Made by a program: the position numbers and the translations under genes
Notes under the pieces: generated by a model
Told to the model about the DNA's origin: nothing
The model's input: only the letters and a program-made list of their open reading frames with translations
Database searches by the model: none
Source: Paraspadella gotoi
Taxonomy: Eukaryota; Animalia; Chaetognatha
Length of the DNA stretch: 64,000 nucleotides
Direction of reading: 5' to 3'
Assembly (NCBI GenBank): GCA_051294375.1
Contig: JBJCIZ010000744.1
Coordinates: forward strand, 1,602,262-1,666,261
In this document: positions 1 through 59,278 of the stretch, piece after piece
Position numbering within the stretch: the stretch's first letter is position 1
How the letters are laid out: each line of letters starts with the position of its first letter

Positions 1-669
1 ACTTTCCCAGTTTTTTTTTTTAACTGCTTTTCATTCCCCCTTTTTACAGTTTCTTTTATCCTTGGAATGAATTTTTAGCCCCGATCTCTTATTATAAAAA
101 AACAATTTCCTCTTGGTTAAATTATTATTTTATAGTAAAGGTTTCGTTCTCACATTTTGTCTCGATATATATATGGCTGGTCCATCAATTCCTTTTTTTT
201 TTATTTGTCGCGATAAAAGTAACTTAAGTACGACGTAGTTGATTATCCAAAAAGTCTCGATCAAGCTATTAGCTTACAAAAGATAAACCTTTATAAATTA
301 TCTTTATTGTTGATTGAGAAGAAGGTCCATTTCCCGCGGTGATTGGCTGTGTGCATTGTGCATTGTGCAGATTAAAGTTTTCCTATTTTCCTCTTCCAGC
401 ACGTTTTCACTCATTGGACCTGGAGTCTCTTTTCAGACGTCGTCGAGATTTTCAAACCTTACGAACTCAAAGGCGTGACATCGTCTCCCTTTCTCTCTCG
501 CTTCAACTCTGCTACTAACAAATGTTTATTTTTACATTTAATATTACTGAAAACAAATTTCCCCCTTTTTTTTCAGAGCCAGATATAGTAAAGATAAACA
601 TTTTATTGGTCAAATCAAACTCTAAGAGACGGTTGAACGACAACGGATAAAACGACGACAGCGACGACA

Positions 670-3600
670 ATGTCGGAGAAGACGACGACGCAATTGGCGA
701 TCGTGGCCGAGACGACGATCCCCTTCACAGCCTTTCGATGTCGTTGGGTTCCCTCTTCGGCCAGGTGGAGAAAGAGTTGGTGGGAGGGAAGGGGATGGAT
801 GAAATCCGCGCTACCAATAATAAAATTAATCAATTCGTTTAAATAAATAAGGTATCTAGCCAATGACTTTTGGACAGGCTATGGTCGTTTACTGCCTCCA
901 ATCACGCTTAAAAGATAATAACGTAGCAGGACCCCCACAAGCTTTCAATTAAGACTCTCTCTCTCAGTCTTCCCTATTTCTATTGTATTGGAAGCTCTTT
1001 CGGGGCGAGCCGGGATTGCAACGATCAATTGGTAGGGAGAAATAAAGAGGCTGTTATGGCAACGGAGGGACATGTGTGATACCTGGGTTGTGAGGCATCT
1101 CCCGACAGCTGGCGCTCAGGGCTTTGGACCTGCAGTGACCCCACCCCATGTCACTGGCGTGTTTATGCCGACACCATCACGCTTTAACCAGCGTGACCGT
1201 GAGGGGATTGAACCCGGAACTCACGGTTGGTGAACGAGTTTCACACTGTCGCGAAAAGGGGGAAGTTGGAATACACTGCCGCACAAAAAAAAGCGACTGG
1301 TTAGCTCTTAATACACCTTTATTTTTTTTTTCAATTAAAAAAAATATATAAGAGAACTATAGCTCTTTTATAGAGCTATAGATTGGCGGAATAAAAATTA
1401 AAATTAGCAACACAGGAAACGCTTGGTCTCGTTTGACTTTTCTGCCTTTTCTTCTTTTTTCAGAAAAGGCAGAAAAGCCAAAGGAGACAAACCTGCGTTG
1501 TTAGTTTAGCAAAACTTTAAAGTCAGAATGTCAAAACCGAACCTGAGGAAAAAAACTATTTCCATGGGTTAACAAGGTAATGCTTTCGAGTCGTCTTTCG
1601 TTTCTTCCAACCCCCCCCCAAAAAAAAAAAATTCTACAAAGAATGTGATTGTGGTTGTATTTTCGTTTTTTCCTCTTCCAAAAGTAGTTTTATATGGCGG
1701 AGTCGCAGACATGAGTTTTGGTAGTCCCATTTGAGAAACGGACCAGAATGATTAATTTTCGAATACACGTATGTTGCACTGGAATGGGTTGGAAATGGTT
1801 TTCGTAATTAATCGAGAAAACATTTTAAATTAAGTAACTCGTCTTTAATTTCAACGTGACTGGAACTCTACGCACTTCTATTTCTCGCTGGAAGTTCCCC
1901 CCCCCCATGTTATTTTAAAATTGCTATTTTGTTAGTATTTCCACATCCATTATCGTGATTTTATTACAATAATTAAATCTGTTCGAATTTTTAACGATTT
2001 AAAATCATTCGTCTTTTTTTTTTTTTTTTTTCCATAAATGTTTGATTTTCATTTTCAAGAGTCTTTTTCTTTTTGGTTGAATGTTGAAACGCACTGTTTT
2101 TAAATCTCAATGATGGCGTCCGGTGCAGTTCGAAGAGTCTTCAACCAAACCGTCAAACTTCATATGGAAATGACGACTCAGTTGGAGCTCAAGGTGAGTG
2201 GAAGGGTGTGGGGTAGGAGGGAGGAAGAGCGGTGGGGCGGGGCGGGAGAAAGATTGGGACGAAGAGAACGTGGAGGGGTATGTTTGTTAAAGGGCAAACT
2301 TTGTGTCACGAGCCGATGACCAGTTGCAGACCAAAGTGGCAGCGTCGAAAGTCTCCGCGTTGCTTGCGTCCCACGGTACGTCAACAGTTTCACTAGAGAG
2401 AGAGAGGGATTGGGAGGAAGGTCGGGCAAATGAAGATTGAGGTTTATCTGGGAGGGAACTTGAAGAGAAGAAAGTTACTGGCCCAATTGCATAAGGCGTT
2501 CGTCGGGTGATGACACAATAACATATAATTGACAGACAACATTATCATTTCATTGTAAATAAATGACATGAATTAAGATAAAAGAGTTGAGCGAGAGGAG
2601 AGAAATTTTGAAGAAAATCGTGGGTTGGAATTTGAGTGTGCAAAATGTTTATTAAATGTTTATTAAAAATGTTTATTAAAAATGTTATTAAAAATGTTTA
2701 TTAAAAAAATAAGGGACGGAATAAGAGTTGCGAGAGAGAAGAGTGAAGTCAGAAGTGTTGGGTAGGAGAAAGTAGAGAGAAAGAGTGAAGTCAAAAGAGT
2801 GTTGTTGAGTGTTGGACAGAAGTGTTGAATAGGAGAGAGTTCACTTTATCCCCTCCCCCCTTTTCCACCCCTACCTTTTCCACCCTTTCTCCTCATTACC
2901 CCTCTCCCACCTCCTCCCCCTTTTCCCCCCCCCTTCCTTCCCCCCTTCCTTCCCCCCCCCATCCCCGATCAGCGAGTTGATCTAAAACCGGTGAAGCAAA
3001 TCCTCGTCGCCTACGATCCGTGGAAATCGGATTGCGCTTCGGCTCAAACAGTTTTTTTTACAACATCAGCCTCGACGAAGGTGATTACTTCATTCATGAG
3101 TTTATTATTACTGTTATTACTATTTTTTTATTTTATTATTTATTTTTTTAAATTATTAATTATTAAAGACAAACTGTAAAACGCTGATGAAGGCTTGAAA
3201 AACAAGTCGAAACATGTCTGTTTTTATATAAATAAAATTCGTTGCAAACCCAAAAACTTTGTCAATCTCTAAAGATTAAGATAATGGAAGGACCAATCCT
3301 GTTAATATAGGTTCAAGTGGATATTTAACTAGCGACTTACTTAATGGTTTGAAGGTTACTTGGCTGGCTTCTTGGTAAGACTAATGAACGAGAGTTAGGC
3401 TTGCAATGTATTCAAGTATAGATCTGTGAGCTAGCAAGGGCATAGTGGTCCAAACTACTCCATCCCACTCTCTTTTTCTCTTTCTCCCTCTCTCTCCCAA
3501 GTCCGCGAAACGAACCCGGCGGCGAGCATCCGCACCGAGGTCAAATCCGACCAATCGGACCCGACGGTCCGCGTCACCTTCAACGACGGCGCCATCGTTA

Positions 3601-6600
3601 CTTACCAGACGCGACTCTTGGGTCTCCACGATATCCTCTATCATCTCAACGCCACCATCCACGCGAAGAAGAGTGGCGACGCCGCCCGAGAGCCGACTGC
3701 CGGGAAATGAGAGATCGAGAGAGAGAGAGAAATGTGGGAATTGAGTCTGAATTAATGCTCCTTTGAAGTCGTCGTCTAGTTGTTGCCTTCGTCGTTGTTT
3801 TCTTTGTTGTCGTCGTTGCCGTCGTCGTATCTATCGTTGTCGTCGTCGTCGTTTTCTTCCTCTTGTTCGTCGTCTGCTTCGTTGTCGTCTGCTTCGTTGT
3901 CGTCGTCTGCTTCATTGTTATCATCTCACTTGTTGTCGTCTGCTTTGTTATCGTCTACGTCGTTGTCGTCTGCTTTGTTATCGTCTACGTCGTTGTCGTC
4001 TGCTTCGTTGTCATCGTCTGCTTCGTTGTCGTCGTCTGCTTCGTTATCATTTTTCCTCTTCTCCAAATTTGGTATTTTCCTGATCACACAAACGTGAATA
4101 GAATAGAATAATTGATTTAAGTTTATTATTATTGTTTTGCCGAGATCGTTACTTATGTTGAAAGTCTATTATCAATCTGATTCTTGATGTGCTTTCACAT
4201 CATGATCCTTGAGTAAGATTTTCGGGCTTTAGAAATATATATATATATATCTGTTATTAATATTATTTAACCGTTTTGATAATTGATAATTTGACAATTT
4301 TTTTTGACATCCAGATTTTCTAATTTTAGATTTTGCTATGCCGAGTCGGCTCAAGCGTTTCTCTCCAAATTCGATGTCTCAATATTATTAACATATTGCG
4401 TCTCAAGTTTCACTGCGCTGAAATGGTGGATGTTAAAAAGAATTTTCCGTTAATTGAAATTTTATCAATTTTATTTATATATGACTTGTAAATTTCGATT
4501 AGTCACTCGAGAAAGTCGTCCTTGGAGTGAAAAGATTATTGGTTTTCTCAAACGGTCGCTTAGGTTTTAGGAAAAACTGTTGCAGCTTTATTTAAAGGAA
4601 AAGAAAAGAGTCGCTAAAATCTTATTTTGTCCTAACCTTTTGGTTGAATTCTCAAAACACAGAAGTAATGTCGTTTAAAATGACACGGAGAACTTCATAA
4701 AAAAAAAAAACTCTACTAAATGCCAGCCTGATATTGTCATCAGATAATGCGATACTGACATCAAATGCTTTACCAGCTTTCCAAGCTTTCAAACCTCTGC
4801 AAAGCATAAACGTCTTTTAAAACTCCTTACCCACTCCAATCACCTCTCGCCGCAACCATGTCGGGCCAATGCCGCTCCTGCGCCCGCTCCTTCGGCTTCT
4901 TCAACAAAGAACGCGGCTGCAGCAACTGCGGCTTCTCCTTTTGCGGCAAATGCTGCGAGAAGAAGACGTTCGTCCCGAAACGCGGATCCCGTGGAATCGT
5001 TTGCGACGGATGCTCGGCCTCATTGTCTCAACATCCGAAGAGCGAGTCGAAGATCGGAGAGAGGATTTCTCCGCCTAAGAATCTGTTGAAAAGAGAGAAT
5101 GAGTTGACTCGACCCGTGGGGGCTGCGGCGCCGGCGCCTGCGGCAGAAGCTAACGTCAGTCGCGCGACGCCGCGTCGCGACGAGTGGACGAAAGGTTTGG
5201 GACCGGAAGACCTAGAACTCAAACGTCGACTGGAGAGACTGAAAGAGTCGAAACCGACGGGCGCCTCCGGAACGACGGCGCCGCCGGGGCCGGCCGAGCG
5301 CGAAGATCCTCGGCGTCATCTTCCGCCGGCGGAGACGCGCAGTAGAGCGGAGCAGGCGGACGAGCTGCTGCGGCGGGCGAAGGACGAGGCGGAGATCGAC
5401 GCGAAGAGAATCGATCCGGTTGAAGACGTTGAGCGGAGATTGAGGCGGTTGAGAGGGGAAGACGCTGCAGTGCCGGGACCAGGAGCTGCGGAGGTGGAAC
5501 CGTCGCCGGAAGACGTTTTGAAGAAACTCGCCGACGCCGAGAGCGGAAAGGCCGTCGCCAGAAATGAAGATGAAGATTTCTCGGAAATGAGTCGGACGAT
5601 GGCGTCGAAGGCGGAAGAGGAGGAGGAGGAGGCGAAGAAGAGCGTGAAAGAGATGAAGGGAGACGAGGAGGTGAAGAAGTTGATGGAGGAAGCGAGAAGG
5701 ATGAGGAAGAAGGAGGAGGAGGAGGAGGAAGAAGACGAGGAGAAAGAGGCGGACGATATCGTGGATCGAGTTTTGGCCGAATTGAAACTTGAAGAGAATT
5801 TGGAGGAGCTGGAAGAGCCGGGTGGCGGCGGCGGCAGCGGCAGCGGCGGCGGCGTGGATTTCGTGAATCCTTTTCGAAAGACGCAGCGTCAAGTGGCGCG
5901 GGTGGCGGCGATGGAGGACGAAGAGGCAGAGGAGTTGCCTTGGTAAGTTAAAAAGGAAATGGGTGGGAATGGAATTATGGTTGGGTTGGGTTATTGAAGT
6001 CGACGGAATTCCACATCCCTGCCGTTTCCTCTTTTCGCTCAACATTCCTCATCCGTCTCTCTTTCTCTCTTTCTCGTTCCTTTTATTTTCATTTTTTACT
6101 ATCCTTCTTTCTCCCGTTTTTTATTGCCTTTTTAATACCTTCTCCCTCTTCCTTTTACTTTCTTTTCTCCCTTCCTAACTCTCTTCCCACTAACTTACCC
6201 TCTCCATTTTCCTCACACAACCCAAGGTGCGTGATCTGCAACGAGGACGCCCGCCTTCGCTGCCCCGACTGCGACGACGACCTCTACTGCGCTCGATGCT
6301 TCCGTGAATGTCACTCGGACGATCCTCATTCGCCCGTCGAGTTTAGAAGAGGAAGATAACCCCTTTCCCACTACCCCCCCCCCCCCGCCTTTGCTTTTTA
6401 CCCGTAGTAAAAGACGTGGACCTTAATAATGGGGTTATTATTAAGGACTGTTTACATGTTTCTTTTCTGTCACCGAGTATTTATAGATGTTACAATGCGA
6501 AATACTAAAAATTGCCGAATTTAGTCACAAAGGGCCTTTTTCCATCGTCAACCCTATTTGCTCGTATTCCCCACCCCACCCGGTCTTCCCATTATTGACA

Positions 6601-9600
6601 AAGTGATACTTTTCACAATGATTTTTTTAAATTTTTCATTTTGGAAAAAAAAATGAATTTTTTAATCGTTTTCGCGGTTTTTTCGATTTTATTTAGTGAA
6701 GATAAGATAAGTGAATTCACGGGTGGAATTTTGTGATGGAAACCGACGCGGACGGATTCGTGAAAGTGAAAAAATCGAGATCGAAAAATCGAGGAAAAAT
6801 AATTCACCGTCAGATCGAGATTCACGACGACGACGACGACCCGATCGATCCTTTCTTCGACTCTAAACTTCTCTCCTCTTCTCTCTCTCTCTCCACGGGT
6901 CCGCTCGCCAGCTGCGTCTTCTCTCTTCTCTCTCTCTTCCCTTTTCGCCGCCTCGTCTGCTACGGCGTCGGCCGCGTCTCCCGCTGCCGCATCGCGCGGA
7001 CTCAACTCGCTCTCTTCCTCTTGATGAAGGATCGAGCCCGAATTCCTGCGCTACTCTACGATCCGGCGCTGTCCGCCGCGGAAGCGGAGGCCGTTCGGCG
7101 ACGCGGCGTCGACGTGCTCGAGACGAACGAAGAGTGTCGACGTAACGTGGCCGGAGAGACGACGCTCTTCTTCATGCCGCACTGCGATCGGCCCATGTAC
7201 GAGAATCTCCTCTGGGCCAATTGGAATCCCGAGGATCTCCAGCGGGTCGTCGTTCTCGGCAACGCCTTTGGCCGAGTTTTGGAGCGGACGCCGGGAACGG
7301 TGCTGGAAGAAGAGACGCCGCTTTTGGCCAAATCGGCGCGGGTGTTGGAGGAGGCTCCGTTAGAGGCGGATCCCGGCGTCGACGACGACGTCTTCAACGA
7401 TTGCGGCGTCGTCTTCTTTCCCGCGGAAAAGATCAAATCTGTGGAGGCGGAGTTTTGGCGGCGACGAGATTGGACGCCGGATTGTACGCCAAAGGAGTTG
7501 AGGGGAGGAACGGTTTCTGGGTGATAAAAAGGGAGAGAGAGATAGAGAGCGAGACGTAGACAAGAATAGAGATAGAGACCCGCGCTGCGAAACTTTTGAT
7601 TTCTTTGACGGGGTTCATCGATTTCCAAGAAAATGTCCGTCGTCACTCTGCAATTGGGTCAATGCGGAAACCAGATGGGGTTTCATCTCTTCGACAGCTT
7701 GGCTGGATCTGCTGGACCTGCTGGGGCTGAAGGAGAATCCGCCCCCAAAATTCCGGTGAAAATCCGTGAAAATTTCCGCGAGGAAATCGTGGAGAAATTT
7801 TTTCACGAGAGGGAGAATTCGCCTTTGATGGCCCGCGCGGTTTTGATCGATATGGAGACAAAGGTTGGTTAAATGTTAATTTGTTAATTATTGTTGTTGA
7901 ATGATGAAAAAATTATTTATTGAACCTTTTTTCTTTTTTGAAACTTTCATTTGCATGTTGCAGTTGTTACTCTCTCTCTCTCTCTCTCTCCCTCCCTCCC
8001 TTATAAGGTAATCGACGGGATACTCGAAGAATCCCGTCGTCGCCTCTCCGCCTCCAACTGGCGCTTCGACCCTTCCTCTCGCTTCTCCCGCAAGACCGGC
8101 TCCGGCAACAACTGGGCCAACGGGTTCGCCCACTTCGGCGCCGCCTGTCGCGACCAAATCGAAGAGCTCGTCCGAAGAGAGACGGAAATCTGCGATCGAC
8201 TCGACGGATTCCTGTTGCTGATGTCGCTGGCCGGCGGGACAGGGTCGGGACTCGGCGCCGCCGTCGCCGCGACTCTGCGGGACAGTTTCAGCGGCGGCGG
8301 CGGCCGCGAAAAGACCTCCGTCTGTCAGGCGGTCTGGCCGCACTCGGCCGGAGAGGTGCTGTTGCAGAATTACAACACGTTGCTGTCGGTCGCTCATTTG
8401 CATCAGGTCTGTGCAGAAGGGGGTGGACTGATAAAGGAATCGGGAGTGTGATTAATCATTAAAGCACGTTAATCCCAAACTATTTGAACGATGAATCAAT
8501 AACTTTCGTCAATTTCTTGATTCATGAATCCCGTCCTCGAATTTGTTATAAATTGAGGATTATTCTACATTTGAAATAAAAGAAATTAATATTTAACCAA
8601 TAACCATTTATTGATAGATTATTAATGCGCCCTTTACCATCAATCAGTCCTCCGACGCCGTCACCCTCCACTTCAACGACACTCTCCAACACGTCTGCAA
8701 GAATCGTCTTCGTCTTCAACGCGTCGACTTCTCCGACATGAACGGCCTCATCGCTCACCAGTTATCCTCCGTCCTCGCTCCCTCTTGGCGGCTGCCCGAC
8801 ACCGACGGTCGCCCGACCAACCGCTTGACCGACCTGGTCTCATCCCTGACTCCACATCCGGGTCACCGTCTCCTCCGTGTCTTCTCCGTCCCAATCATGT
8901 CTCCCGACTGTCTGGACTTTTCCCGCGACCGTTGGTCCGTCCTGACGCGGCGACTGCGGCGAATGCTGCTGGCCGACTCGGCCGTCGACGAAGGGTTGGA
9001 CCGTGGCTTCGAAGAGCGGGCGGAGATTCGCTCGGTGGCCAATTTGTTGCATCTTCGTGGAGACGGTCTCGACGAAAGGTTGGGCGGAGTTGGAAGAGGA
9101 AGAGGAGACTCTTCCGAGCCTCCGGACCTTAACTCTTTACGCGACTCGAACATCTACGCCTCGTGGACGCCCGCGGAGGATCGCCTGACGGCCTTCGCTT
9201 CCCCGATGAGGCACGGGGGCTACGAGAAGAGCGCCACGCTGGTCTCCAACTCTAGCGGAGTCTGGCGTCCGCTCGACGGCCTCGTGGAGAAGGCTTGGAG
9301 GATGTTCGGAGTTCGAGCTTATCTTCATCAGTACGAAGCCTTTGGGTTCGAACGGGAGGATTTTTTGGACTCATTCGCCGCCGTCGAACAGATTGTGGGG
9401 AATTATAAGAGTTTGTGAAGGTTGTGGTTGTGGTCCCTAATTTCAAATAGCTATCTAAGACTAAGTTTATTATGAAACGATTGTCCAAATTCAAAATTTT
9501 TACAAACTCTGCTTTGAAAATTTTCTTTTTTTTTTATCCGTTTAGTCAAGATAAATTCGTAGCATAGAAAGATGTGTATGTAAAGAGCCAGTCGACGTCT

Positions 9601-12600
9601 ATAATAAGATTAATAAATTTATAATAAAAGATAAATTCGTCTCGTTAGACAAGGAACTCTACGATATGCAAATGGTTTTCTTAGAGGATCAACTCTTTAC
9701 TAAAGAGATCACATGCGTTTAGCTTCACATGCGTTTAGCTTCTTGCCTTATACTGACCCATTGTTTTATTTATGTTTTAGTGTATTTTTAAAACATGTTC
9801 TTCGTCTTTTAAAAAAAACCTCAACTTCTACCACAACTCTCCGAACTATGGCCTCCACCGCCGTCGTGGTCGGCGTCTCCCTCGCCGCCGTCGGACTCGC
9901 CGGTCGCGCGCTCTCTCGTCGTCTCCCGGAACTAGAGAAGAACCTCTCCCTACACGCCAAGCGCCTCGCCGAGAGCGCTCCTTCAAAATACTATCGCGGC
10001 GGTTTCGAGCCTCAAATGTCTCGTCGAGAGGCCAGCCTCGTTTTGGGCATCAGTCCGTCGGCCAGCGAGAGGAAGATCAAAGAGGCGCATCGGAGGATCA
10101 TGTTGGCCAATCATCCCGACAAGGGAGGTTCGCCTTATTTGGCCACTAAGATCAACGAGGCCAAAGATAAACTCGAAGCCGGGCGGAGTTGAAAGAATGG
10201 GTTAATATGTTCATTGGAGGATCGCTTCAGTCTGGTCAGGCCCGTCAGGGAGAGAGACGACGTTATTCTCTCTTCCAAGAGGTCAATCACGATGTGGTAC
10301 ATAGTTAATGTTAATTGTTATATCTATGAAAGTTATCTCTGTAAATCGAGTAATGAAAGGATATTTAAATCCATTTATTTTAATTGCTTTGCTTTACTCT
10401 GTGAAAAAAAAGCTCGTTCGAATGGGACTACTTAAAATAGCTCATGTACTGCGACATCCGAATTTTTTTTAACAAAATGTACAATTGTTGTCCCTTTTCA
10501 TTGTTTTCTCATAACCAAAAAATCTATTTAATATACTGAGTCATGATAGTTTCAGTTTTCAGTTTTATCATAATGGAATACTTTAACGAGAGTCCCGGAG
10601 TCTGGGAGAATTTCTAATCCGTTTTTGCGATTGGATGAGAGAAAAAAAAACTATTTGGGTTGAAACTCTTTTACTCCAATCAAAGATTCAAGCCTCTTAC
10701 TTTTAATGATCTTCATGAGGGAAATGATTCCTGTCACCGCAGAATTGTCGTATTTCAAGGTTGTTACTTGGTTATATAGAATTTATATCAAACATTTTAA
10801 TTTAAAGGGGAATTAAAAAGTAGTGACCATTGGTATATATTCCATCAACGGACAGTGTCCGACGGTTTCCTCGTGTATCCAACTAATAAATTTTTGAATC
10901 TTAACCTCGACGAATCTAATTTCAATTGAATCCTCAAATTCCATTCTTCCATTTTTTTTTCCCTCAAAGATTCGTCGCCGTCGGCGCCGCTCCATCCGGT
11001 TCCGGATCTCTCGGCGTCTTTTCTCTCTCTTCCGGCGCCGTGGATACGGTATCGACGACGACGACTACGACGCCGTTGAGATGCTGCAGTTTCGGGGCGA
11101 CGCCGCTGACGGAGCGTCGGTTGGCCACCGGTGAGGAGGGGAATAAAGGCTTTCTCCAAATATGTTAATCGTCATCATTAAATACTTTATTTTTTTTAAT
11201 AATACGTAATATTCTCTCTTTTCCTCCAGGCGACTTTTCCGGAACCCTTCAACTCTGGGATTTGGAATCCCTCAACTCTCCCGTCAAATCGATGAAGGCG
11301 CACGAAGACGTCGTCAACAGCGTCGATGGCGTAGGAGGAGGAGGATCATCGAGACGGTTGGTCACCGGTAAGTACAGTCAGGTTGAGTTAATCTCATTTG
11401 CATATTGTCGTCTTTGAATTTGTGTGGATAAATATCTATTCATTTACCTTAAAGGCTTAATATTGTTATTTCCTCTCGGCAAATTATTGTTTGTATTAAG
11501 TTCACTTATCAGTAATCCAATTGAAGCTCTAAATATCATAAACTCCTCATACCATATCAACTTATTACACTTGTCGTTTCTGCCCAATCTTCTCTCTTCA
11601 ATTCGTCACCCCAGGTAGTCGCGACGGTCGAGTTAAACTCTGGGATCCTCGCCTCAGTTCGTCGTCGACGTCAGCGGCGATCGTCGTCTCGGCGTCAGAA
11701 GGAAGCGGACGAGATTGTTGGAGCGTCGCTTTCGGAGATGGAGGCGACGTCGTTGCCGCCGGGTGGGTGAAAGAAAAAGGGAGGGCTGAGGGCCGAAGTT
11801 GTGGGTGAGGTCAGAGAGAAACTGCCCAGCGGCGATATAAATATTCTATGGCAACAGCCGGGTTGCCTGTGATGCCCATTGGGATGGGGCATCTCACTGT
11901 TGGCTTTGGGGGCTTCCGACCCTCAGTGACGCCTCCAGTCACTGGCGCGGTTACCCTAGGACGGTCTCGCTTTGCCAACGCAGAGGGAAGTCATTAGGAC
12001 TGTGGATGGAACACTACGCCTGGGATGGTGTGTTCCCCCTCTGAGCCAATGGATTTGGCTGACGGATGGTGGACGTGAGGCGGTGTGAATATACCGCCAC
12101 AATTCCTTTATTTTTTTTTCGGTATCTGTATTGTTATTTGTATTTATATTTTTGTAAATTGTTTTATTTATTAAATATATTTATTTATATTATTTAACTT
12201 TATTAAATATATTTATTTATATTATTTAACTTTGCAGTTACGACAACGGAGACGTAAAGATCTACGATCTTCGATCCGTCGCCGTCGCGTGGGAAACAAA
12301 TATTCAATCCGGAGTTTGTTCTTTGGGTATTAAAATAATTTTACTATGAATTAAACACGTTGAGATTGGTTAATGGTTATACAGATATATAAATGATTGT
12401 GGGTCCAAGGCCTTCTTCCGTCTCGCAAGATAATAACCGCAAGATAATAACCAGTCACTGCAAGCTTTCTCAATTAATTTCCTTTTGTTCTTTTAAGTCT
12501 TCTTTTTACTTTTATTAGGTTTGTCTCATTTATGCTATACTAAAATCCACCAACCGTTCATCAGCGGCCATTGGTTCAGGAGGCTAGTCATTGGCTTCCC

Positions 12601-14354
12601 AACCCTTGGATCTTGCTATGTCATTATCTTGTAAGAGGGGATGGAGGCTTCAACCCACTATAGCCCCTTAATCACTTCATTAGTCGTACAAATATAAATA
12701 TTGTTTAGTAATTTATCCATTTATTTATCGACTTTACCTCAAATTTCATTTCTATTTGTTAATATTAATAATATTAATTAAATACTCTTTTGCTCAGACT
12801 TCGATTCGCGAGAGACGAAGAGCGAAAAGTTGATCGCGTCGTCCGTCGGAGCAAAGTTCTTCGTCGTAGATCTTCTCGACTCTGGTGAGTGAGTGTGTGT
12901 GAGTGAGAGAGAGAGGGAGAGATTGTGAGTGTGTGTGTGTATGTGAGAGAGAGGGAGAGATTGTGAGTCGAACGTCGGAGTAAAGTTCTTCGTTGTAGAT
13001 CTTCTTGACTCTGGTGAGTGAGTGTGTGTGTGTGAGAGAAGAGAGGGAGAGATTGTGAGTGTGTGTGTGTATGTGAGAGAGAGGGAGAGATTGTGAGTCG
13101 AACGTCGGAGCAAAGTTCTTCGTCGTAGATCTTCTCGACTCTGGTGAGTGAGTGTGTGTGAGTGAGAGAGAGAGGGAGAGATTGTGAGTGTGTGTGTGTA
13201 TGTGAGAGAGAGGGAGAGATTGTGAGTCGAACGTCAGAGTAAAGTTCTTCGTCGTAGATCTTCTTGACTCTGGTGAGTGAGTGTGTGTGTGTGTGGAGAG
13301 AGAGAGAGAGGAGAGATTGTGAGTGATGTGTGTGTATGTGAGAGAGAGAGAGGGAGAGATTGTGATTGAGTGAGTGTATGTGAGAGAGAGGGAGAGATTG
13401 TGAGTGTGTGTGTGTGTATGTTAGAGAGAGAGATTGTGAATGAGTGTGTGTATGTGAGAGAGGGAGAGATTGTAAGTGAGTTTGTGTATGAGAGAGGGAG
13501 AGATTGTGAGTGTGTGAGAGGGGAGAGAGATTGTGTGTGTGTATGTGAGAGAGAGGGAGAGATTGTGTGGTGTGTGTATGTGAGAGAGAGAGAGAGGGAG
13601 AGATTGTGAGTGTGTGTGTATGTGAGAGAGAGAGAGGGAGAGATTGTGAGTGAGTGTGTGTATGTGAGAGAGAGAGAGGGAGAGAGATTGTGAGTATGTT
13701 AGCTAGCGAGTTAGTGAATGACTAAATCAATGGGTGAATGAAAAGCTGTCCCACTCATTCTTCTCAATCGTCTCTCTCACTCTTCCGCCCCTTCTCTCTT
13801 TCGACCACAAGCCTTTGCCACATCCTCTGAAGGCGCCCACAAGTCGACAATCTGGTGCGCGACTCACTCCCCACAAGCGGCGCGCCTCTTCGTCACTTCC
13901 GGTGGAAACGGCGCCGTTAATCTATGGCGCCACGTGGACGACGCCGGGGAGAGGGTGAGAATATTATCTTCGAAGTGAACGAATTAGCAATGATAAAATA
14001 ATGATAATAGTTGCTAAATCAAAGATAGTGCCAACTGTGAGTCTATGTCTCGCTGAAGTATCTTCCCTCCTTCGCCCTACCTTCCACCCCCAATCTAACC
14101 CCTTCCACCCCCACATCTAACCTCCAACCCCACACCCTTCCACCCCCATCTAAACCCCTTCCACCCCCACTCTAAACCCTTCCACCCCCACATCTAAACC
14201 TTCACAGCCCTTCCTCCTCGCTTCCGCCCCCGTCTCTTCCGACGCCCTCTGCGACTTCTCTTGGCATCCTGACAAACTCGGACTCGGCGTCGTCGCCTCC
14301 TTCGATCGACGCCTGCGAATCCTGGCGGCGCCGAAGTTGGAACGATTCGCTTGA
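670..14354 (+). CDS. WDR92: WD repeat protein 92 (dynein axonemal assembly factor 10), 8 exons
   Basis: Exons ~670-764, 10970-11130, 11230-11367, 11615-11762, 12238-12326, 12798-12884, 13812-13954, 14208-14354 join in frame through GT-AG sites. Peptides [32 protein letters not shown]|[84 protein letters not shown] match WDR92 as I recall it. The exon 1 to exon 2 link is inferred from homology and phase (AG|A = Arg). Confidence 0.88.
1108..1192 (-). ncRNA. Type-P5 twister ribozyme fold, family B variant, downstream of a B-box
   Basis: Minus strand GCUGG UUAAA GCGU GA UGG UGUCGGCA U^AA ACAC GC CAGUGAC..GUCACUG C AGG U CCA AAGC CCU GAGCG CCAGC, preceded by GGTTCAATCCC. Confidence 0.75.
2110..3710 (+). 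CDS. MRPL53: Mitochondrial ribosomal protein mL53, 3 exons, apparent 1-nt frameshift in a T8 run
   Basis: Exons 2110-2193, 2973-3080, 3502-3710. [16 protein letters not shown] and [30 protein letters not shown] resemble arthropod mRpL53. Phase fits only if T8 at 3052-3059 is T9 or T6. Confidence 0.78.
3178..3224 (+). ncRNA. Minimal type-I hammerhead ribozyme (Penelope-like), sense in MRPL53 intron 2
   Basis: AAAACG CUGAUGA A GGCUUG-AAAAA-CAAGUC GAA ACAUGU C^ UGUUUU; stem III is the palindrome ACAUGU; AATAAA follows. Confidence 0.78.
3770..4050. repeat. About 18-bp CGTTGTCGTCGTCTGCTT minisatellite
   Basis: Visible tandem degenerate units. Confidence 0.85.
4858..6359 (+). CDS. ZFYVE19: FYVE zinc-finger protein 19 (abscission/NoCut checkpoint regulator), 2 exons
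   Basis: N-terminal FYVE-like [28 protein letters not shown]; exon 4858-5942 joins exon 6227-6359 to give ELPW|[29 protein letters not shown], the typical C-terminal Cys domain. Confidence 0.9.
6736..7524 (+). CDS. SRRD: SRR1-domain protein, single exon
   Basis: Motifs [56 protein letters not shown]. Confidence 0.88.
   Translation: METDADGFVKVKKSRSKNRGKIIHRQIEIHDDDDDPIDPFFDSKLLSSSLSLSTGPLASCVFSLLSLFPFRRLVCYGVGRVSRCRIARTQLALFLLMKDRARIPALLYDPALSAAEAEAVRRRGVDVLETNEECRRNVAGETTLFFMPHCDRPMYENLLWANWNPEDLQRVVVLGNAFGRVLERTPGTVLEEETPLLAKSARVLEEAPLEADPGVDDDVFNDCGVVFFPAEKIKSVEAEFWRRRDWTPDCTPKELRGGTVSG
7633..9418 (+). CDS. TUBD1: Tubulin delta chain, 3 exons
   Basis: Exons 7633-7863, 8008-8406, 8648-9418. 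[76 protein letters not shown] are delta-type motifs. Confidence 0.92.
9848..10192 (+). CDS. DNAJC19: Mitochondrial import J-protein TIM14/PAM18, single exon
   Basis: [47 protein letters not shown] (HPD J-domain), with an N-terminal hydrophobic segment. Confidence 0.93.
   Translation: MASTAVVVGVSLAAVGLAGRALSRRLPELEKNLSLHAKRLAESAPSKYYRGGFEPQMSRREASLVLGISPSASERKIKEAHRRIMLANHPDKGGSPYLATKINEAKDKLEAGRS
11899..11979 (-). ncRNA. Type-P5 twister ribozyme fold, family B, antisense in a WDR92 intron
   Basis: Minus strand GUUGGC AAA GCGA GA CCG UCCUAGGG U^AA CCGC GC CAGUGAC-UGGAGGC-GUCACUG A GGG U CGG AAGC CCC CAAA GCCAAC. Confidence 0.8.
12844..13697 (+). repeat. About four 129-bp tandem units containing a WDR92 exon end and donor, followed by a GA/GT-rich minisatellite
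   Basis: Units start at 12844, 12973, 13103 and 13232 and alternate between two variants. Confidence 0.9.
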
Positions 14355-14738
14355 AATAAAATCCCGTGGATCGAACGACGTTTGGATTATTGTGGCCCCG
14401 AATATATATAAAAAAAGGACATTTGGGAGATTTAGGGATTATAGCGCCAAAGATTCGACTGTGGATTGGCGTGAGACGAACGTCGAGAGCAATTTGTTAA
14501 TGTTATCGATCTTTCGCTACGAAAAGGATTGAGAGAAGATGGACGGGTCGATATTCTCAGAATCGCATTGAATACAAAGTTGGTTAACCAAACTGCCTTT
14601 CGTTCTTTTTCCACGAGTTACAAATGTTGTCGTTTTTTTTCTTCAATTTTTGGAAATTCTTATTTTTTGTTAATTCTGGTTTTTTTTTCAGAATTTCAAC
14701 AAAAATAATCTTAAAGTTAAACATCATTTTTTGACGAG

Positions 14739-17077
14739 ATGCCCTCTGATTTTCGTAAGTAAAAATAACTTCGTTGAGATAAACTTTTTAATTTTGATGG
14801 TCTTTTACAGGGGTGGGACCCTATATCGAAACAAAACTTAACGTCTGAACGATTTGAGATACAATAATATAATGAGTGTCAAAAGTTTTTTCTGGCTTTT
14901 TTCTTTTATATACAATGAAACAAAATACATTTTTAAGCAACCCATTTAAGCATTGCGGATGTTTTCAAAACGCGGGCATTGTATGTGATTAAAGCCATAC
15001 TTATTAAATTTTTCAGTGGTCGTTTCTGGACATGACAGTGTCAATGTCACTGTCATGTCTTATCTTCAATTGACCTGATTTTAAGCTTTTCATCACTATC
15101 CAAATTAAACTTATTCATTTATCATTTAATATCAGCCCAAAAAAATTAAATAAATTTTCAAATAAGTTTTCAAAAATTTTTCTTCCAAACCGCGCGGAGA
15201 AAACCGAGCAGTTGCCTTTGCTGCACCAAAAAAATCATATTAAAGAATTTCAAAAAGTGGCTTACAACCCGCAGCGGTATAACTCGTGGTTACAGCGTGG
15301 TCTAGAGCTTTGGTACTGTCGGCAGCCCCGAACATTTTGGCAAGTTATGCGGTCCATTCCACGTTTTCTATGACAACCAAGAGAATCGAACCATGGTTGC
15401 ACATTGGGATAGTGCATTATTTCACTAAGGCACTGCTGATAAAGCCACCAGAGTCTATTTAAAAGCTTTATATGTTTTTATCTCGCCAGACGGGCTTAAG
15501 CCAGTCTTGGGCGTAGATAACCATTTAGTATTGCTTTTTTGTGCCGTCGTCGTCACGTTGTTTTAACATGCTCAAGTGTGCAACCACAGGAAGCTAGAAA
15601 TTTAGATGTGGCTTCTCATCGTTGAGGTCTTTTAAATTGTTATGTTTATTCATTCGCCGACCCGGATTTTGCGGTCGGTTATTATCGCTTTTGCGCAGAA
15701 GTGGCATAGTCGTCGTCGTCGTTGTTGTCGGCGTTCCAAATTATAGATCGCCTTTTTGATGATTAAATTTGGGTGTATGAAGCTGAAAATTTATATACAG
15801 CTTCTCATCATCGATGTCCTTAAAATTGAGTCAGGACAGTTATTAAATATGTTTTGTTTACGTTTTATCAAAATAAACAAATTTTCTCTTTTAATTTTAT
15901 ATTTATTTCTCTCTCTCTTTTCTCTTTTAATTATATGTCTCTTGCCTTCTCTCTTTTTCCTAGTCACTGATTCTGCTGCTGCCTTTTGAGTCTGCAGCTG
16001 GCTCTGAAGGGGCTTATTCTTTTTCTCTCTTTTCTCCTGTTGCTTCTGCTGCTGCCTTTTGAGTCTGCAGGGGCTCTCTCTTTTTCTCTCTTTTCTCCTG
16101 CTGCTTCTGCTGCTGCTTTTTGAGTCTGCAGCTGGCTCTGCAGGGGCTCTCTCTTTTTCTCTCTTTTCTCCTGCTGCTTCTGCTGCTGCCTTTTGATTTT
16201 TTTTTTCTCTCACTGCGTTTTTATTAAAAAAAAAAAAAAAAATTAGGATTGAACTCTTAAAATTATGCATCGCATTCGTGCATGTTATGGCTGCATCTGC
16301 TGTTTTTTATTGTTTTTTTTTCAGAAACTGTAATTTTAATTTTCCTCGGTACTTTTTTTAATTGACAATTGAAAAAATAAAATTTTTCTTTCTGTTTATA
16401 AATTAATTTTCTTTTCTCTTTTTTTTTTTTTTTTCGTATCAAAATTTATCGTCAATCCCGATTTTTCTTATGCGATTGCGACGATCCTTATGCTTTTAAG
16501 ATTTTTTTTTTTCGCTTCTTAATCTTATGAGCGATTTATATAAAAATTTCGCTACGCAAAAATTTAAAAAAAGATACTGGTAAGGGTATAAACATTTTTA
16601 AAGTGTATGATCGAGCTGGATATAAAGTTTAGATGGAATCGTGCGAGTGGAAATGAGTTCAAATGGAAAAAACATAAGTCACTTTTATTTGAACCTTTTG
16701 AATAATTTTAATCCATAATTAATCAAATTAATCATAATTGGATGGATAGATAGAGATTAAATTTTGTGTGTGGGTAGGAAAGTGTGTGATATAGCACGTT
16801 ATAAAGTTTCGCTGGAATCGAGGAGTGGAAATGAGTTTGCATGAAAAAAACCAAAGTCAAGTTGACTTGATTTTTTATTATTTATGCTTACTCATGAATT
16901 TTTTAATTAAATGAAAAAATGATGCATGATAAAAGAATGATGCATGATAAAAGAATGATGCATGATGAAAGAATGATGCATGATGAAAAAATGAAGCAAG
17001 TTGAAAAAATGAAGCAAGTGGAAAAAAAAAGTTAAAAAAATTATTTGTACTTTATTTGTAATTATTACTACTATAGT

Positions 17078-20219: not shown

Positions 20220-21459
20220 CAGATCTGGTCAAAAAAACTTAGAACCCCTTACTATTCGATTGTCTGTTGGCCTATAAATTAAAATTTGGGTTCATTTGAA
20301 AGCCAAGACAAAGATCTTTCATTCTGTCTTCATTTTGTCTTACAATGTCTTTTTTTGGAAAAAAAATAAAAAATTTCATCTTTGTTTTTTTTTTTTGTTT
20401 TTTGTTTTTTTTTCAAGATATAGGATCGCCAAACGGTTGCATTTCTCTCTTACAGCCGTCAGCAGAGTTGTCAACAAATATGAAGCAACTGGAGACCGGT
20501 CAAAATTTCAAATTTTTTTTTTTAAATTCTGAGAACAGATTCAGATTCCTCGTTAAAAGTTGATAAAAGAAAATATAAATCTTTTTAAAAAATTATAGTA
20601 GGTTAAAATTATAAAAAACTATATTTTTAAGCTCAAAATTGAAAATCGGTGTCTTAAATATATTTTTTTATATTTTTAACCAATGAAAGAATTTTTAAAA
20701 AAGAATTATACTCTCTTATATCAACTTTTTGCAAGGAATTTAAATCCGATCTTACAATTCAAAAATTTGCATTTTAGCTTATTATATACTTATTATTATA
20801 TATAAATATAGCTCACTGTGGCCACTAATATATGAAATTAAAAAATAAATTTATTAAAGTATTTTTATTGGTTTTTATTTTTATGTTTTATATGCTAAAT
20901 TTTAATTTTCTAAAATTTTATCATTTTCACATCACTCTAATGTCCATAAAGAGCAAGGACGATGACCTGGAAAGTCTCGCAATTCAAGACCGTAAGGCTT
21001 CTGCTCACCAGTTGAGAAAAAAATTGACAGAAGAAAGAGGAATTGTCGCCAGTCATTCAACAGTGAATAGGTGGCTTTTTATAGAGGATAGCTCCTGGAT
21101 ACAAAGCCAAAGCCACTCAAAAATGTTATTAGGAAAACGGGATCAAGATGCTTCAAGGTTGGCCCGGAAACTAACCTGACTGCAACATAATCAAAAATAT
21201 CTGGTCAAGGATGAAAAAGGAATTTTTGCAGTTGACAAAATAAAGAAAATTGTAAAACGCATTTGGCGGGAGCTGAACCCTTCATATTTGTGCAGCCTCT
21301 ACGACTCTCTCCGTTGTCGCATGGAAGCGGTGCTGGAAGCAAATGGTGGTCAAATAACATATTAATTAACTGAGTTCTAAAAAGTATTGTTTTCCTTCAA
21401 ATAACGAAATAAAATGCTTTTATCATAACTATTTAATTTTTTTTTGACCAGGTTACCTG
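20220..21459 (+). mobile_element. Decayed Tc1/mariner transposon
   Basis: Terminal inverted matches (ta)CAGATCTGGTCAAAAAAA and TTTTTTTGACCAGGTTACCTG. Transposase remnants RIAKRLHFSLTAVSRVVNKYEATG, DRKASAHQLRKKL..SHSTVNRWL and WRELNPSYLCSLYDSLRCRMEAVLEANGGQITY*. An AT-rich inverted insert lies at ~20520-20760. Confidence 0.8.
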
Positions 21460-22286: not shown

Positions 22287-24937
22287 ATGTGTTCTAAACG
22301 CGAATCGGAATCGACGAAGCGTTTGATCTTCAGTCGATGCTTCATGAACCGATTGGCGCCGCCCGACGCCGCCTACGTCCCCACCGAGTTCGAACATCTC
22401 GCCAACATCTTCTCCCATGGATTCTGCGTCGTCCCGGCGCTAGCGGGGATGCTGCATCTGTTAAGGATGTCGGGTACTAGTACTGGTTGCTGTTTTTTAA
22501 TTATGTTAATATAGTTTTTGTTATTAATAAAAAAAAACATCAAACGAATGCGATTGTAATTTTTTGTTATTTGAATTCTTCAAATTTAAGAATTTAATTT
22601 AATTTAATTTAATTTCCTCAAATTATTTACATTTTGGAAGGTTGATTTTGGTAATAAGAAACATTTCATAGACTCCTTATTTAAACACTAATTAAATATT
22701 AATTAAACATTAATTATTCGTCTCTATCTTCCTTCGTCTTCCTCTCACAACTCCCCCTTCATCAACAGGCTCTTCCTCTTCCCCCCTTCACTTCGAAGCG
22801 GCCTTCGTCTACGGCGTCGCCCTCGTCGGCCTCTTCTCTGTCTCCACCGCCTTTCACGCCCTCAGTTATCACAGGGGATACAAGACTCACTACGGGAAGG
22901 TGAGATCACCGCCGTCAGAGGGACTCGTTAATTCGGGGGGGGGGAGGAGAGATTCCATTTTTTTTGCTCCATTTGACGACTAAGTTTAGGAGGTGTTGGG
23001 GGTGGTTCAGTTTAGGGTTAGGTTTTTTTTTTTCTGAAATAAAAGAAACAATTTAACAGTTAAAGCGATAAAAAGATAAAAACGATAAAATTTAGGTGAG
23101 TGAGCTCATGACTTATAATTTTTATTTTCTCCACTAATCATTTTTTCGCTCATTTTTGATTATATTTTTTTCTGATAAGAACTTCTATTTTAATTTTTTT
23201 TTTACCTCAATTTTTTTTTTTTTTCCACTTTCCGTTTTACTTCTTTTTTCTTTCTTTTTATTTTTCTGTCCCCTTCTCCTTCTTCTTCTCTCTTCATTTT
23301 CCTTCTCTTCTTCTCATTTTCTTCTTCCTACTCTTTTAATTTCTTTCTCTCCTTCCTATCCTTCCTCCAGGATCATCCTCTATCCAATCTCCTTCTCTCC
23401 CGCTGGATTTCTCCCGCCCTCACGGAACGCCTTCAAGAGGCGTTTCACATTGGCGACCGCGCCGTCATTTACTTCTTCATCGCCGCGTCCTACACGCCTT
23501 GGCTAATACTTAGAGAGGTTTTAATATACTTATGAAATTGGTACAACCAATATAAAAATTATCCATTCATTTAATAAATAAGCTATCTTGCCCCTGACTT
23601 TGGACAGGCTTTGGTGGTTTAAGGCCTCCATCACTCTTACAAGATAATGACATAGCAGGTCCCTGCAAGCTTTATATATTAACTGTTATAAAAATTGTTA
23701 TAATAAATGCTAAATTGCTATTATAATGCAAGCAATCCCATGGCTTGTGGCATAGCGGCATAGCGGGTCTTCTTGCTCGAATGAGTTAAATTTGCAATTC
23801 TATAACGGAATTGATATTTGGAATGAGTTGAATCTTGACTTTCTAAAGTAGATAATCGCAGACCGCAATTCTAGTCTTCCTTCGCTTCTACATATTGTCT
23901 GGAAAAAAAAAATGGCAGAAGTTACTAAATGATTTAGTTTCAGCATGACTATTAATTATTCCTAATTTAAACCCATCGTCTAAATTTGCTTTTTGAAGTT
24001 AATAAACGACAAGCTCACAACCGCTTTATGCAAATGAGTTTTAAATCCTAAAAATAAATTGTGTTTGTTATTACTTCTGCCCCCTGTCGCCACCCTCTAC
24101 CAAACAGGTGGGCGAGGTCGGCGCTTCCATGCGTTGGATGATCTGGGTCCTCGCCGCCGTCGGCACCGCTTATCAGTATTGCTTCCACGAGCGGTTCAAA
24201 TGGTAATACCTTTTTCAATTTACCCTTCTTCCCCGGCCCTCTCAATCTCTCGCTTTTCTCAACCTCACCCAGGCTGGACACCCTGATCTACCTGGGAGTG
24301 GCCGTTCTTCCCGCTCTCGTTCTTACCCTCTTCATGACGCCGCCCGATGGGCTGGAGGAACTCGCTTGCGGCGGCATCGTTTACATTTTAGGCAAGCTTC
24401 TCCTTTTCTCTAAAAAAACAGATTTAAAGATATTTGAGTTCTTTTTCTTTTTTAATATACTTACACTACATTGTCATTAAAGTTCATTTTTATGACAATC
24501 TCGTCGATAAAATCATCTACATTTCGATGTGATCACGTCACTGTTATACTAAGTCATGTCATTAATTTCGGCATGTCGCTAACGTAAAATTAAATTGTTT
24601 CAACCAATATAAAAATTCATTATTAATTAAGCTATCTTACCCCTGACATAGGACAGGCCTGCTTCCTTTTCACAAAATAATAACATAGCAGGACCCTGAA
24701 TGTCATTTTACTCTCATTATACTCCGTTCCTTAAAGTTGGTAATAAATATTAGTTTTTTAAAAAAAGAACAACATTTTTCATAAGGCGTGATCTTCTTCA
24801 AATGCGACGGCCGCATCCCCTGCGCACACGCCATCTGGCACCTGTTCGTTTTCGTCGGCGCATCTGTTCACTACTATGCCGTTTGTCGGCACCTGTTGAC
24901 TCTGGCCTCGCCACCCGGCTCCGTGGAGACTCCTTGA
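22287..24937 (+). CDS. MMD: Monocyte-to-macrophage differentiation factor (PAQR / haemolysin-III family), 6 exons
   Basis: Exons ~22287-22473, 22769-22899, 23371-23517, 24108-24202, 24273-24391, 24786-24937. Motifs [68 protein letters not shown]. The last intron is GC-AG. Confidence 0.92.
23584..23646 (-). ncRNA. Type-P5 twister ribozyme fold, family A, intact, antisense in an MMD intron
   Basis: 63 nt identical to the reverse complement of 60088-60150; the surrounding element spans ~23530-23673. Confidence 0.82.
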
Positions 24938-37245: not shown

Positions 37246-38712
37246 CAAAAAAGACTAATTTTAGGAAGGATTGACTAAGTCTCATTTCCTCTTTTATTTC
37301 ATAAATGCACCTCGAGATTTATCTTTTTTTCTACATTCCACCTTTTTTTGTTTTTTTTCTGAAAGAAGGAGAAAGCAAACAAATAATTACGGGAATGGTT
37401 GCAAAAACAATAAACGTGAACAAAAGCTTTTTATTGGTTAAAGGGTTTTACTACAAATTTATTGTATTTATTTTTATTTAGTCTTATTTGGTGTCAAGTT
37501 ATTTAGTTTTTTAGTTAATTATTTTTTTCTTGTTGTCACATTTTGCTTTGTGTCCGTTTTTCGGGCACTGAATTCGGATAACCCCAAAAAAAAAAACATT
37601 GTATTTTTATTGTTGTCCTTTCTACTCTGGTCTACAATGGTGTTTACTAGTATGAAAAATTCGCCTTTTTTTTAGCTAATTTCGATAAATCCGTTGTTAA
37701 ATTAAAACGATTTCAATTTAATTGTTAATTAGGAATAAAAACTTTTGCGCGGATGATCTTCTGTTTCTCTCTTCCGATCGAAGAAACTTTTTTTTTTTGA
37801 ATTTTCGCGGGAAAAAAAAGAGAGAAAAAAAAAACTACAAATCTGTCGATCGTCGTTGTCGTTGTTGTTATTCCTCGGATCGACGAGAGGAAAGATCGAT
37901 ACGAGAACTTGTTGTCGTCGTCGTCGTCGTCGTCGTCGTCGTCCGAGAGCAGACGACATTTCCTTTCCGGGTCTCTCCCCTCGGCCCTCCTAGATTTCAA
38001 TTTTCAATAGGATTTATTTTTTTCTTCCCGTTTTAATCAATAAATTTTTTTTTTTTGAATAATTTTCTTCTCGGATTTTGAGTCTCGTTTTTATTTTGGG
38101 CTTTGTGAGTTTTTTTTGATATGAAGNNNNNNNNNNTCACGAAAAGTTGATAAAAGAAAATAAAACTCTTTTTAGAAAATTATTTCATTAAGTGAATCAA
38201 AATCCTAAAAAACTATTATTGTTATCCTATATTATAGGCTATAATTAAATTTTAGTATAAAAAATATAGTTGAGGAATTCGAATCTGCTTTCAAAACTAA
38301 GAAAACATTATTTTAAAATTTTAACATTTTCTATGGTAAGTACTATGTATAAATATGAGCGTATGCGAAAATTGAGAAATTTAAAAAATATTTTTTTATA
38401 TATCAATGTTCTTGAGTCCAAGACTGTTCATGATTAACTATTCGAATTTTGATCTGCAATTTTCACTTCGCCTTAATAGAGAGAGTCTGAGTGATTGAGA
38501 GTATCATTAAGTGTGAGAGGTTGAAAGAAAGACAGAAACAGAGAAAAAAAGATAAACGGGAGACAAAGAATACAAGTTTTAATCTTTATTTCCGTTTTCT
38601 TTGACCGCTTATCATTTTACGTCCTTAGTCATCAGTTCCATTTTAAATCAAAACAAATTCACTAAAAAAAAAAACAAAACAAAGAAAACAAAAACTCAAC
38701 AGGAAAAATAAA

Positions 38713-58600: not shown

Positions 58601-59278
58601 AAGAATAGTTGGAGATTAGAATATTTTTAGTAATATTTTTTTTATTTTTAATTATTTTGGTAATAAGCTTCTTACAGAGAAGCGAAGCCGGTGTTTTCTA
58701 TCAGCGCAATGTCGTATTGACAGTGGGAAAGTAAAAAGTGCATTTATGATAGGCCTATGGCTATTAGGGACTATTTTAAGATTTATGAATCGTGCAGTTT
58801 TTTATGATGCAATTGATCTTTCCGATTCGATGCTCTTTTCTTTGTCGATCTCTCAATTCACACGTGCCCATATTCTTCAATGTCCCTCTTTCGGGAAACC
58901 GACGAACTTGTGATTTTCTTTTGTCGTCGAGTCCCATTGTGTTATTGTGTTATTGTACTTTCGTCCATGAATGAATCTCCCAGATTTTTATTTTCATAAT
59001 GAAATATTTGGATGAAAACTAAAAATTTGATACAAGAGATTTAAAAAATGCCAAATGCCAATTAACCTTTGCTTTTTTTTTTTTTGCAATAAAGAAAAAA
59101 GCGGATGTGATCCTTTTTTTATTCACAAACTGTCGCTCCGTTTTTGTTTACATTCGTCGTTCAATTTTTCAACGCTTTTTTAGTGTCGAAAAAAATAACC
59201 AACACCCCGTGACATTCTTTTTGTCTACGTCCGAGAGTCTCTCTCTCTCTCTCCCTCTCTCTCTCACACACTTCGACC

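Follow-up and report, generated by a model that had tools for sequence, protein, structure and literature searches.

A probable leader-resolved operon of five genes within the first coding intron of WDR92 in the chaetognath Paraspadella gotoi, bracketed by a pair of complementary elements

Leader-resolved operons, in which the individual mRNAs receive a trans-spliced leader, account for 18% of chaetognath genes (PMC12460157) and contain up to nine genes each (PMC2481426, PMC12460157). Genes that lie within introns of other genes have also been described, including parallel nested genes in the ctenophore Hormiphora (PMC8527503) and nested intronic genes in the glass sponge Aphrocallistes (PMC10282587). 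Nesting on the same strand is unremarkable in FlyBase (PMC4528330) and under-represented across animals (PMC2330155). The cholinergic locus is expressed from one precursor with a common first exon by alternative splicing (PMC2776167), while trans-splicing assembles the mRNAs of split genes such as mod(mdg4), lola, and eri-6/7 (PMC4824033). Base pairing has further been proposed, as a hypothesis, to keep a pre-mRNA together after its backbone is broken, so that splicing can be completed (PMC8052449, Fig. 7). Here, we describe the WDR92 locus of Paraspadella gotoi (Chaetognatha), located in a stretch of 64,000 nucleotides (nt) of contig JBJCIZ010000744.1 (1,602,262-1,666,261, forward strand), hereafter the window. 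Five genes lie on the host's strand between WDR92 exons 1 and 2, and a newly found pair of complementary elements, E1 and E2, brackets all five. We consider it probable that the five genes constitute a leader-resolved operon nested in a coding intron and carried on the same precursor as WDR92, with E1/E2 looping them out. The parts of the host gene are as follows:

577-764, + strand: WDR92 exon 1, placed by an RNA contig and by homology (ATG at 670, 31 codons plus 2 nt; acceptor tttttttcag at 576, donor CAG/gtggag)
10970-11130, 11230-11367, 11615-11762, 12238-12326, 12798-12884, 13812-13954, and 14208-14354, + strand: WDR92 exons 2-8
765-10969, + strand: putative WDR92 intron 1, 10205 nt

Splicing of 670-764 (95 nt) to 10970 yields a stop-free WDR92 of 335 amino acids (aa) from eight exons, with GT..AG ends on all introns. 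This model scored 319.6 bits (E 2.4e-99) against a hidden Markov model (HMM) of the WDR92 family, for which 92 of 123 retrieved family proteins were used (340-370 aa, Met start, P0003 excluded). When 2486 stop-free segments from all six frames of the window were scanned with the HMM, the eight top matches were the eight WDR92 exons in order; exon 1 alone scored 13.8 bits (independent E-value 0.0026) and the best segment outside WDR92 scored 2.9. Exon 2 matches residues 33-85 of human WDR92 (PDB 3i2n, E 0.008), with exon 1 accounting for 32 codons. A preliminary description of this DNA had proposed 670-764 as the missing N-terminal exon, in the correct phase, and both the open 335-aa frame and the HMM scores bear this out: exon 2 scored 36.5 bits alone and 68.0 bits when preceded by 670-764, a gain of 31.5, and the other 98 of the 99 candidate first exons in 1-10950 (ATG-opened, stop-free, phase-matched, and GT-ending) reached a maximum of 41.0 (gain <=4.5; mean 36.9, standard deviation 1.6). 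An alternative first exon at 10.2-10.9 kb, which would have contradicted the proposal, found no support from homology, the best of 6 candidates in 10194-10950 scoring 40.8. Exon 2 has no upstream in-frame Met in the genome, and the first Met past exon 1 is residue 107, the earliest in-frame Met available to a transcript that begins at exon 2. Judged by homology, 670-764 is the only WDR92 N-terminal exon in the window. Exon 1 by itself matched nothing in PDB or Pfam, and a homologue search with exon 4 gave no match; a search of the full protein library with exon 2 returned 4 distant matches (42-48%) and no close relative, so that no protein spanning the 764^10970 junction was obtained. At 10205 nt, intron 1 compares with 99-927 nt for the 11 other introns modelled in 2-14 kb. 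The 3′ half of exon 6, together with its donor, has three further tandem copies within intron 6 (12798-13270).

With exon 1 and exon 2 placed by homology, the interval between these two host exons contains complete genes. As the preliminary description had stated, they are five in number and on the host's strand; all are housekeeping genes:

2060-3710, + strand: MRPL53 (coding parts 2110-2193, 2973-3080, and 3502-3710), with leader acceptor ttttcaag, a 661-nt RNA contig, and a Pfam match
4858-5942 and 6227-6359, + strand: exons of ZFYVE19/ANCHR (FYVE 1e-6, ANCHR B-box 3e-12), candidate leader acceptor at 4314
6736-7524, + strand: SRRD, single exon (SRR1 6e-36), candidate leader acceptor at 6696
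7633-7863, 8008-8406, and 8648-9418, + strand: exons of a delta-type tubulin (PF00091)
9848-10192, + strand: DNAJC19/Tim14, single exon (DnaJ 3.5e-7, yeast Tim14 1.7e-21), candidate acceptor at 9780 or 9545

The layout holds as first described and the five genes are intact, with the correction that MRPL53 exon 2 is frameshifted in the window. The MRPL53 RNA contig is shorter by one letter at 3048 and by one at 3052, which restores the frame and thereby suggests assembly errors of the homopolymer type. MRPL53 matched PF10780 at E 5e-5, just under the cut-off. For the tubulin, the nearest named clusters of the atlas were delta-tubulin (0.95 and 0.91); NCBIfam returned nothing, PDB gave only weak alpha/beta matches, and a metagenome scan found no locus. 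None of 23 DNAJC19-like metagenome loci carried WDR92 or another of the nested genes nearby, and no related chaetognath locus was found in the metagenome scans. The nested genes are closely spaced on one strand, with spacers of 1147, 376, 108, and 429 nt; these are stop-to-start distances that include untranslated regions, and the 250-bp operon criterion given in PMC12460157 is not exactly applicable to them. Poly(A) hexamers were uninformative, 3 of the 6 spacers having none. The SRRD stop and the tubulin ATG are separated by only 108 nt (7525-7632), which are purine-rich and hold no pyrimidine-rich AG by the filter used; the two genes are possibly expressed as a dicistronic mRNA or by way of a weak acceptor just before the tubulin ATG.

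Contigs from four public sequencing runs (X3, X7, X8, and X9) were aligned to positions 1-3100 only. The tables of X7 and X8 are near-identical and were counted as one RNA data set, classed as such because their contig skips both MRPL53 introns, there being no RNA label on the record; X3 and X9 behave as DNA. These contigs bear on the possibility that the arrangement is an assembly artefact or that WDR92 uses a different first exon, 670-764 being unlinked to 10970 or derived from another WDR92 copy. We regard this as highly improbable. In two samples, unbroken DNA contigs connect exon 1 with adjoining intron sequence (193-1083 and 571-850) and cross the MRPL53 acceptor (1929-2701 and 2041-2550), although the high-copy repeat at 1054-1239 is bridged by none listed. 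Small indel errors do occur in the window (3048, 3052), and tandem gene duplicates are frequent in a chaetognath genome (PMC12460157); still, the window has no other WDR92 exons behind 764 and no other exon 1 ahead of 10970, and a chance misjoin is unlikely to have brought the missing exon to a site 10 kb upstream with both strand and phase correct. The earlier statement that no N gap lies between 764 and 10970 also proved correct, since the only N runs in the window are at 38127-38136 and 50166-50175 and the five-gene block is free of them.

The 661-nt RNA contig of MRPL53 begins at 2060, right after a genomic AG acceptor, and skips both introns, its loose end behind 3080 matching 3502 onward. 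At its 5′ loose end are nine non-genomic letters, TTGTTTAAA; of the 26 leader forms given for chaetognaths in Table 3 of PMC2481426, 25 have these letters at their 3′ end. There are 4 copies of TTGTTTAAA in the window, none of them upstream of 2060. MRPL53 receives a chaetognath-type trans-spliced leader at 2060, and for this gene cis-splicing to WDR92 exon 1 is contradicted by a contig that starts with leader letters. A second RNA contig of 202 nt aligns to 567-764 from its 5th letter and ends at 764, with three differing letters, none of them listed in its interior. The last ten letters of the leader differ from 567-576 in exactly three letters, and WDR92 exon 1 therefore likely takes the same leader at 577. 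A further contig of the RNA run extends over 1-540, leaving 36 nt to the WDR92 acceptor at 576; it derives either from the WDR92 outron or from a cistron upstream, whose 3′ end it would mark.

An unspliced RNA contig extends from 735, overlapping the exon 1 contig by 30 letters, to 1096. Once the listed contigs are accounted for, part of the depth of bin 729-832 is left over, which would correspond to a single additional, unlisted contig restricted to 735-764; the bins at the MRPL53 acceptors 2060 and 2973 leave no room for a branch contig from exon 1. Donor 764 therefore appears to be in use with a partner beyond 3100, as deduced by arithmetic from contig depths and not from an observed junction. 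Contigs of the RNA run cover 735-1096, 1092-1221, and 1210-1906; genomic DNA may be present in the library, so this cover is no proof of a precursor, and 1907-2059, where no contig is listed and part of the sequence is a skipped repeat, is uninformative either way. The preliminary description had also suggested that the nested mRNAs are processed from a shared precursor. The leader on MRPL53 gives this direct support, without establishing one common promoter or precursor.

Alternatively, the nested genes could form a separate unit with a promoter of their own in 765-2059, WDR92 being produced by independent read-through with or without a clamp of E1 and E2. We think this unlikely. The RNA-run contigs that continue past exon 1 through intron sequence to 1906 speak against it, with the reservation that DNA carry-over is possible, as does the finding that trans-spliced chaetognath genes have fewer open-chromatin elements (PMC12460157). 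On the other hand, the 1345 nt from donor 764 to the start of MRPL53 are enough for a promoter, work on flatworms and tunicates describes internal promoters that feed trans-splicing (PMC12582326), and the MRPL53 leader is a sign of an unpaired acceptor rather than of a shared promoter. Even with a separate unit, WDR92 precursors would still pass through five genes, and the problem of their processing would therefore remain.

The feature that could address this problem is the pair of elements at the two ends of the intron:

1698-1741, + strand: E1, between the WDR92 donor (933 nt upstream) and the MRPL53 leader acceptor (318 nt downstream)
10414-10460, + strand: E2, between the DNAJC19 stop (221 nt upstream) and the exon 2 acceptor (509 nt downstream)

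When the gene-free ends of the intron (765-2040 on the 5′ side and 10193-10950 on the 3′ side) were folded against each other as a duplex, a single strong match emerged, E1/E2, with 39 pairs (19 GC, 16 AU, and 4 GU) in helices of 20, 15, and 4 and a predicted energy of -57.5 kcal/mol. None of 2000 dinucleotide shuffles of the 3′ part, folded against the whole 5′ part with GU-aware scoring, reached its score, and 1 of 1000 did so under Watson-Crick scoring. E1 and E2 were mutually best partners among 88 and 90 real stretches, the next partners at -40.7 and -37.9 kcal/mol leaving margins of 17 and 20 kcal/mol. The pair ranked first among 171 non-coding region pairs in 1-15600, and again among 1934 tile pairs of the window in which repeats, low-complexity DNA, and hand-read exons had been masked. 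Complementarity beyond chance thus flanks the region that would be looped out. E1/E2 was not among the 25 longest of 363 pairs from an ungapped repeat finder, nor among the 14 unique-arm BLAST matches listed. On the transcribed strand, where its non-Watson-Crick positions form GU pairs, the helix gains 9.5 kcal/mol in stability over the opposite strand, and this strand preference lends modest support to selection acting on the RNA.

The operon could be real while E1/E2 has no role in the RNA, being a chance match or a terminal-inverted-repeat relic left when the block moved, and WDR92 would then depend on tethering or skipping. Dispersed repeats often occur as inverted copies in the window, the pair is known from this locus alone, and exon tethering is a described route by which splicing proceeds without a continuous transcript (PMC5126111, citing Dye et al., 2006). 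However, E1 does not look like a copy of a dispersed repeat: DNA depth over 1665-1768 amounts to a single local contig in both DNA runs and is raised at both neighbouring repeats. The match is also limited to ~45 nt, no target-site duplication is visible by eye at the outer ends, both Watson-Crick mismatches are GU-compatible on the transcribed strand, and the pair is placed exactly where looping-out requires it. With these observations taken together, a pair devoid of RNA function seems to us quite unlikely, though less so than an artefact of assembly.

If the five genes are a nested operon looped out by E1/E2, one polymerase would travel from upstream of 577 through 14354. The precursor would begin upstream of 577 and be given a leader at that position, while leader addition at 2060 and at the other nested genes would release five mRNAs; leaders on the other four genes are expected from their spacing, their candidate acceptors, and the prevalence of operons in the phylum (PMC12460157). 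E1 would await E2, which is made 8.7 kb later, and the helix, if it forms in the cell as predicted, would bring donor 764 to acceptor 10969 with 933 + 509 nt remaining between the splice sites (a reduction from 10.2 kb to ~1.4 kb). The predicted pairing would thereby offer a mechanism for both other options of the preliminary description, the long 764^10970 cis splice and the joining of two RNA pieces. In one version, each precursor would either stay whole, with a 10.2-kb lariat removed, or be cut for the nested genes. In the other, cutting would occur anyway and the helix would act as a splint for the two pieces that bear WDR92.

The second version is possible, but we think it less likely than not. 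Here, leader trans-splicing and 3′-end formation would cut the intron into five mRNAs during synthesis, and the 39-pair helix would hold two pieces, leader-exon 1-E1 and E2-exons 2-8, for joining into WDR92 mRNA. The positions of the elements suit a splint, since E1 precedes the first nested acceptor and E2 follows the stop of the last nested gene. Whether E2 stays with exon 2 is decided by the position of the DNAJC19 poly(A) site, and the DNAJC19 3′ end should then lie upstream of 10414. Between the DNAJC19 stop and E2 there is a pyrimidine-rich AG at 10279; leader addition there, if it is used, would cap the piece with E2 and exons 2-8. Such splinting would turn one precursor into six mRNAs, would mean that splicing naturally bridges a broken backbone with the aid of an RNA splint, and would produce some WDR92 mRNAs that mix alleles where pieces swap between molecules.

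Several points weigh against a nested operon looped out by E1/E2. The 764^10970 junction itself was not seen in the contigs on 1-3100, and none of those listed spans the repeat at 1054-1239 or that whole stretch. The RNA evidence is one data set of contigs, not reads, with genomic DNA carry-over possible. Leader letters were seen on 1 of the 5 nested genes, MRPL53; a full 1147 nt separate this gene from ZFYVE19, and no clear acceptor precedes the tubulin. With regard to E1/E2, the pairing is predicted from this single locus, and the scoring schemes were picked after the pair had been seen. The runner-up tile pair after masking, a gtc/gac-rich match, scored 60 vs. 63 for E1/E2, whose tiles have an unmasked area ~3.4 times as large as the average. 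When exons are not masked, 24 of the 1934 tile pairs reach the E1/E2 score, the 12 of them shown being long, loose, and GC-rich, and the window contains 88 inverted matches with a score of at least 36, many from dispersed repeats.

Three other features lie in the 5′ part of intron 1:

799-961, no strand assigned: dispersed repeat with 5 further copies in the window (71-80% identity), AATAAA at 819 and 842
1054-1239, no strand assigned: high-copy repeat, summed contig depth ~40000 in the DNA runs
1401-1507, + strand: hairpin of pre-microRNA-like shape between the WDR92 donor and E1 (-51.9 kcal/mol, z -8.6, 0 of 200 shuffles)

The hairpin folds equally on both strands and matched no Rfam family at the gathering score, microRNA models being hit below threshold only; its sole variant seen, at position 1458 in run X9, is in the loop. 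It could be a microRNA or a foldback relic, or the precursor could be cut there. The 3′ region of MRPL53 (3780-4050) consists of gtc-rich tandem sequence that is loosely complementary (70-79%) to gac-rich WDR92 exon 1 (637-692), a match that is probably compositional.

All identified genes of the window are on the + strand, and several lie a few hundred bases apart and are further candidate operons. Pfam matches identified a RING protein at 18.1-19.2 kb, two C2H2 zinc-finger genes at 26.6-37.2 kb, a JAB/BRCC36-like gene at 38.7 kb, MED15 at 41.6-47.2 kb, a CDC42-like gene at 50.9-53.0 kb, MRPS34 at 59.3 kb, and a PRMT at 60.7-63.5 kb, all on the + strand. A weak HTH_Tnp_Tc3_2 match marks a remnant of a Tc1/mariner-type transposase at 20829-21360. 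A multi-exon gene at 22341-24937, which we take to resemble MMD/PAQR, gave no Pfam match in the two pieces scanned. Of two multi-exon genes drawn by eye, that at 47540-49998 had no Pfam match in three pieces and that at 55602-58735 had a weak C2H2 finger.

The operons described in chaetognaths share with the WDR92 locus the 3′ end of the leader and closely spaced, same-strand housekeeping genes, but they are described as linear rows of whole genes, whereas the present one is nested (PMC2481426, PMC12460157). The word "nested" has 0 occurrences in the main text and 3 supplement PDFs of PMC12460157, whose operon spreadsheet, outside that scope, may list the locus. For Hormiphora and Aphrocallistes, the passages that treat nesting state no mechanism, leader-linked nested operon, or RNA clamp (PMC8527503, PMC10282587), and the relevant passages of PMC1657053, PMC3409270, and the CORAL preprint contain nothing on nested operons. 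A literature search that covered few subscription journals yielded no multi-gene leader-resolved operon in a coding intron and no clamp around one. Hence the component parts are known, and their combination here was not found in the literature searched. Same-strand nested genes are common in leader-using animals, and the literature examined leaves open how host and guest are expressed jointly; the WDR92 locus would provide a concrete device, a single strong predicted helix around a five-gene block. Annotation of operon-rich genomes will drop first exons of this kind and overlook nested operons.

Morton and Blumenthal are said to have described in 2011 an "alternative operon" of C. elegans in which trans-spliced exos-4.1 lies in an intron of rnp-4 on the same strand, with either-or processing. 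That pair reportedly differs from the WDR92 locus in having one nested gene, short distances, and no long-range helix. For C. elegans unc-17/cha-1, Mathews et al. reportedly showed in 2015 that flanking complementary elements favour the long splice. The cholinergic locus (VAChT/ChAT; unc-17/cha-1) is similar to ours in that a same-strand gene occupies the first intron of the host (PMC2776167). It comprises one nested gene and a shared first exon, whereas here five unrelated genes, an unshared coding exon 1, and separate leaders are present or expected. In Giardia, the halves of split introns are joined with base pairing as the guide. Trans-splicing of split genes resembles the putative splinting of WDR92 in making one mRNA from separate RNA pieces, but those pieces come from separate units, whereas the WDR92 exons are collinear and the split would follow transcription through operon processing (PMC4824033). 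Closest to E1/E2 are the long-range intronic pairs of human genes, in which complementary regions up to 10 kb apart loop out processing sites; these loop exons or poly(A) sites of their own gene, the validated ones at -16 to -20 kcal/mol, in contrast to five genes and a predicted -57.5 kcal/mol at WDR92 (PMC8052449). The hypothesis that RNA structure can rescue a cut pre-mRNA (PMC8052449, Fig. 7) becomes testable at this locus, where cutting of the intron would be the normal fate.

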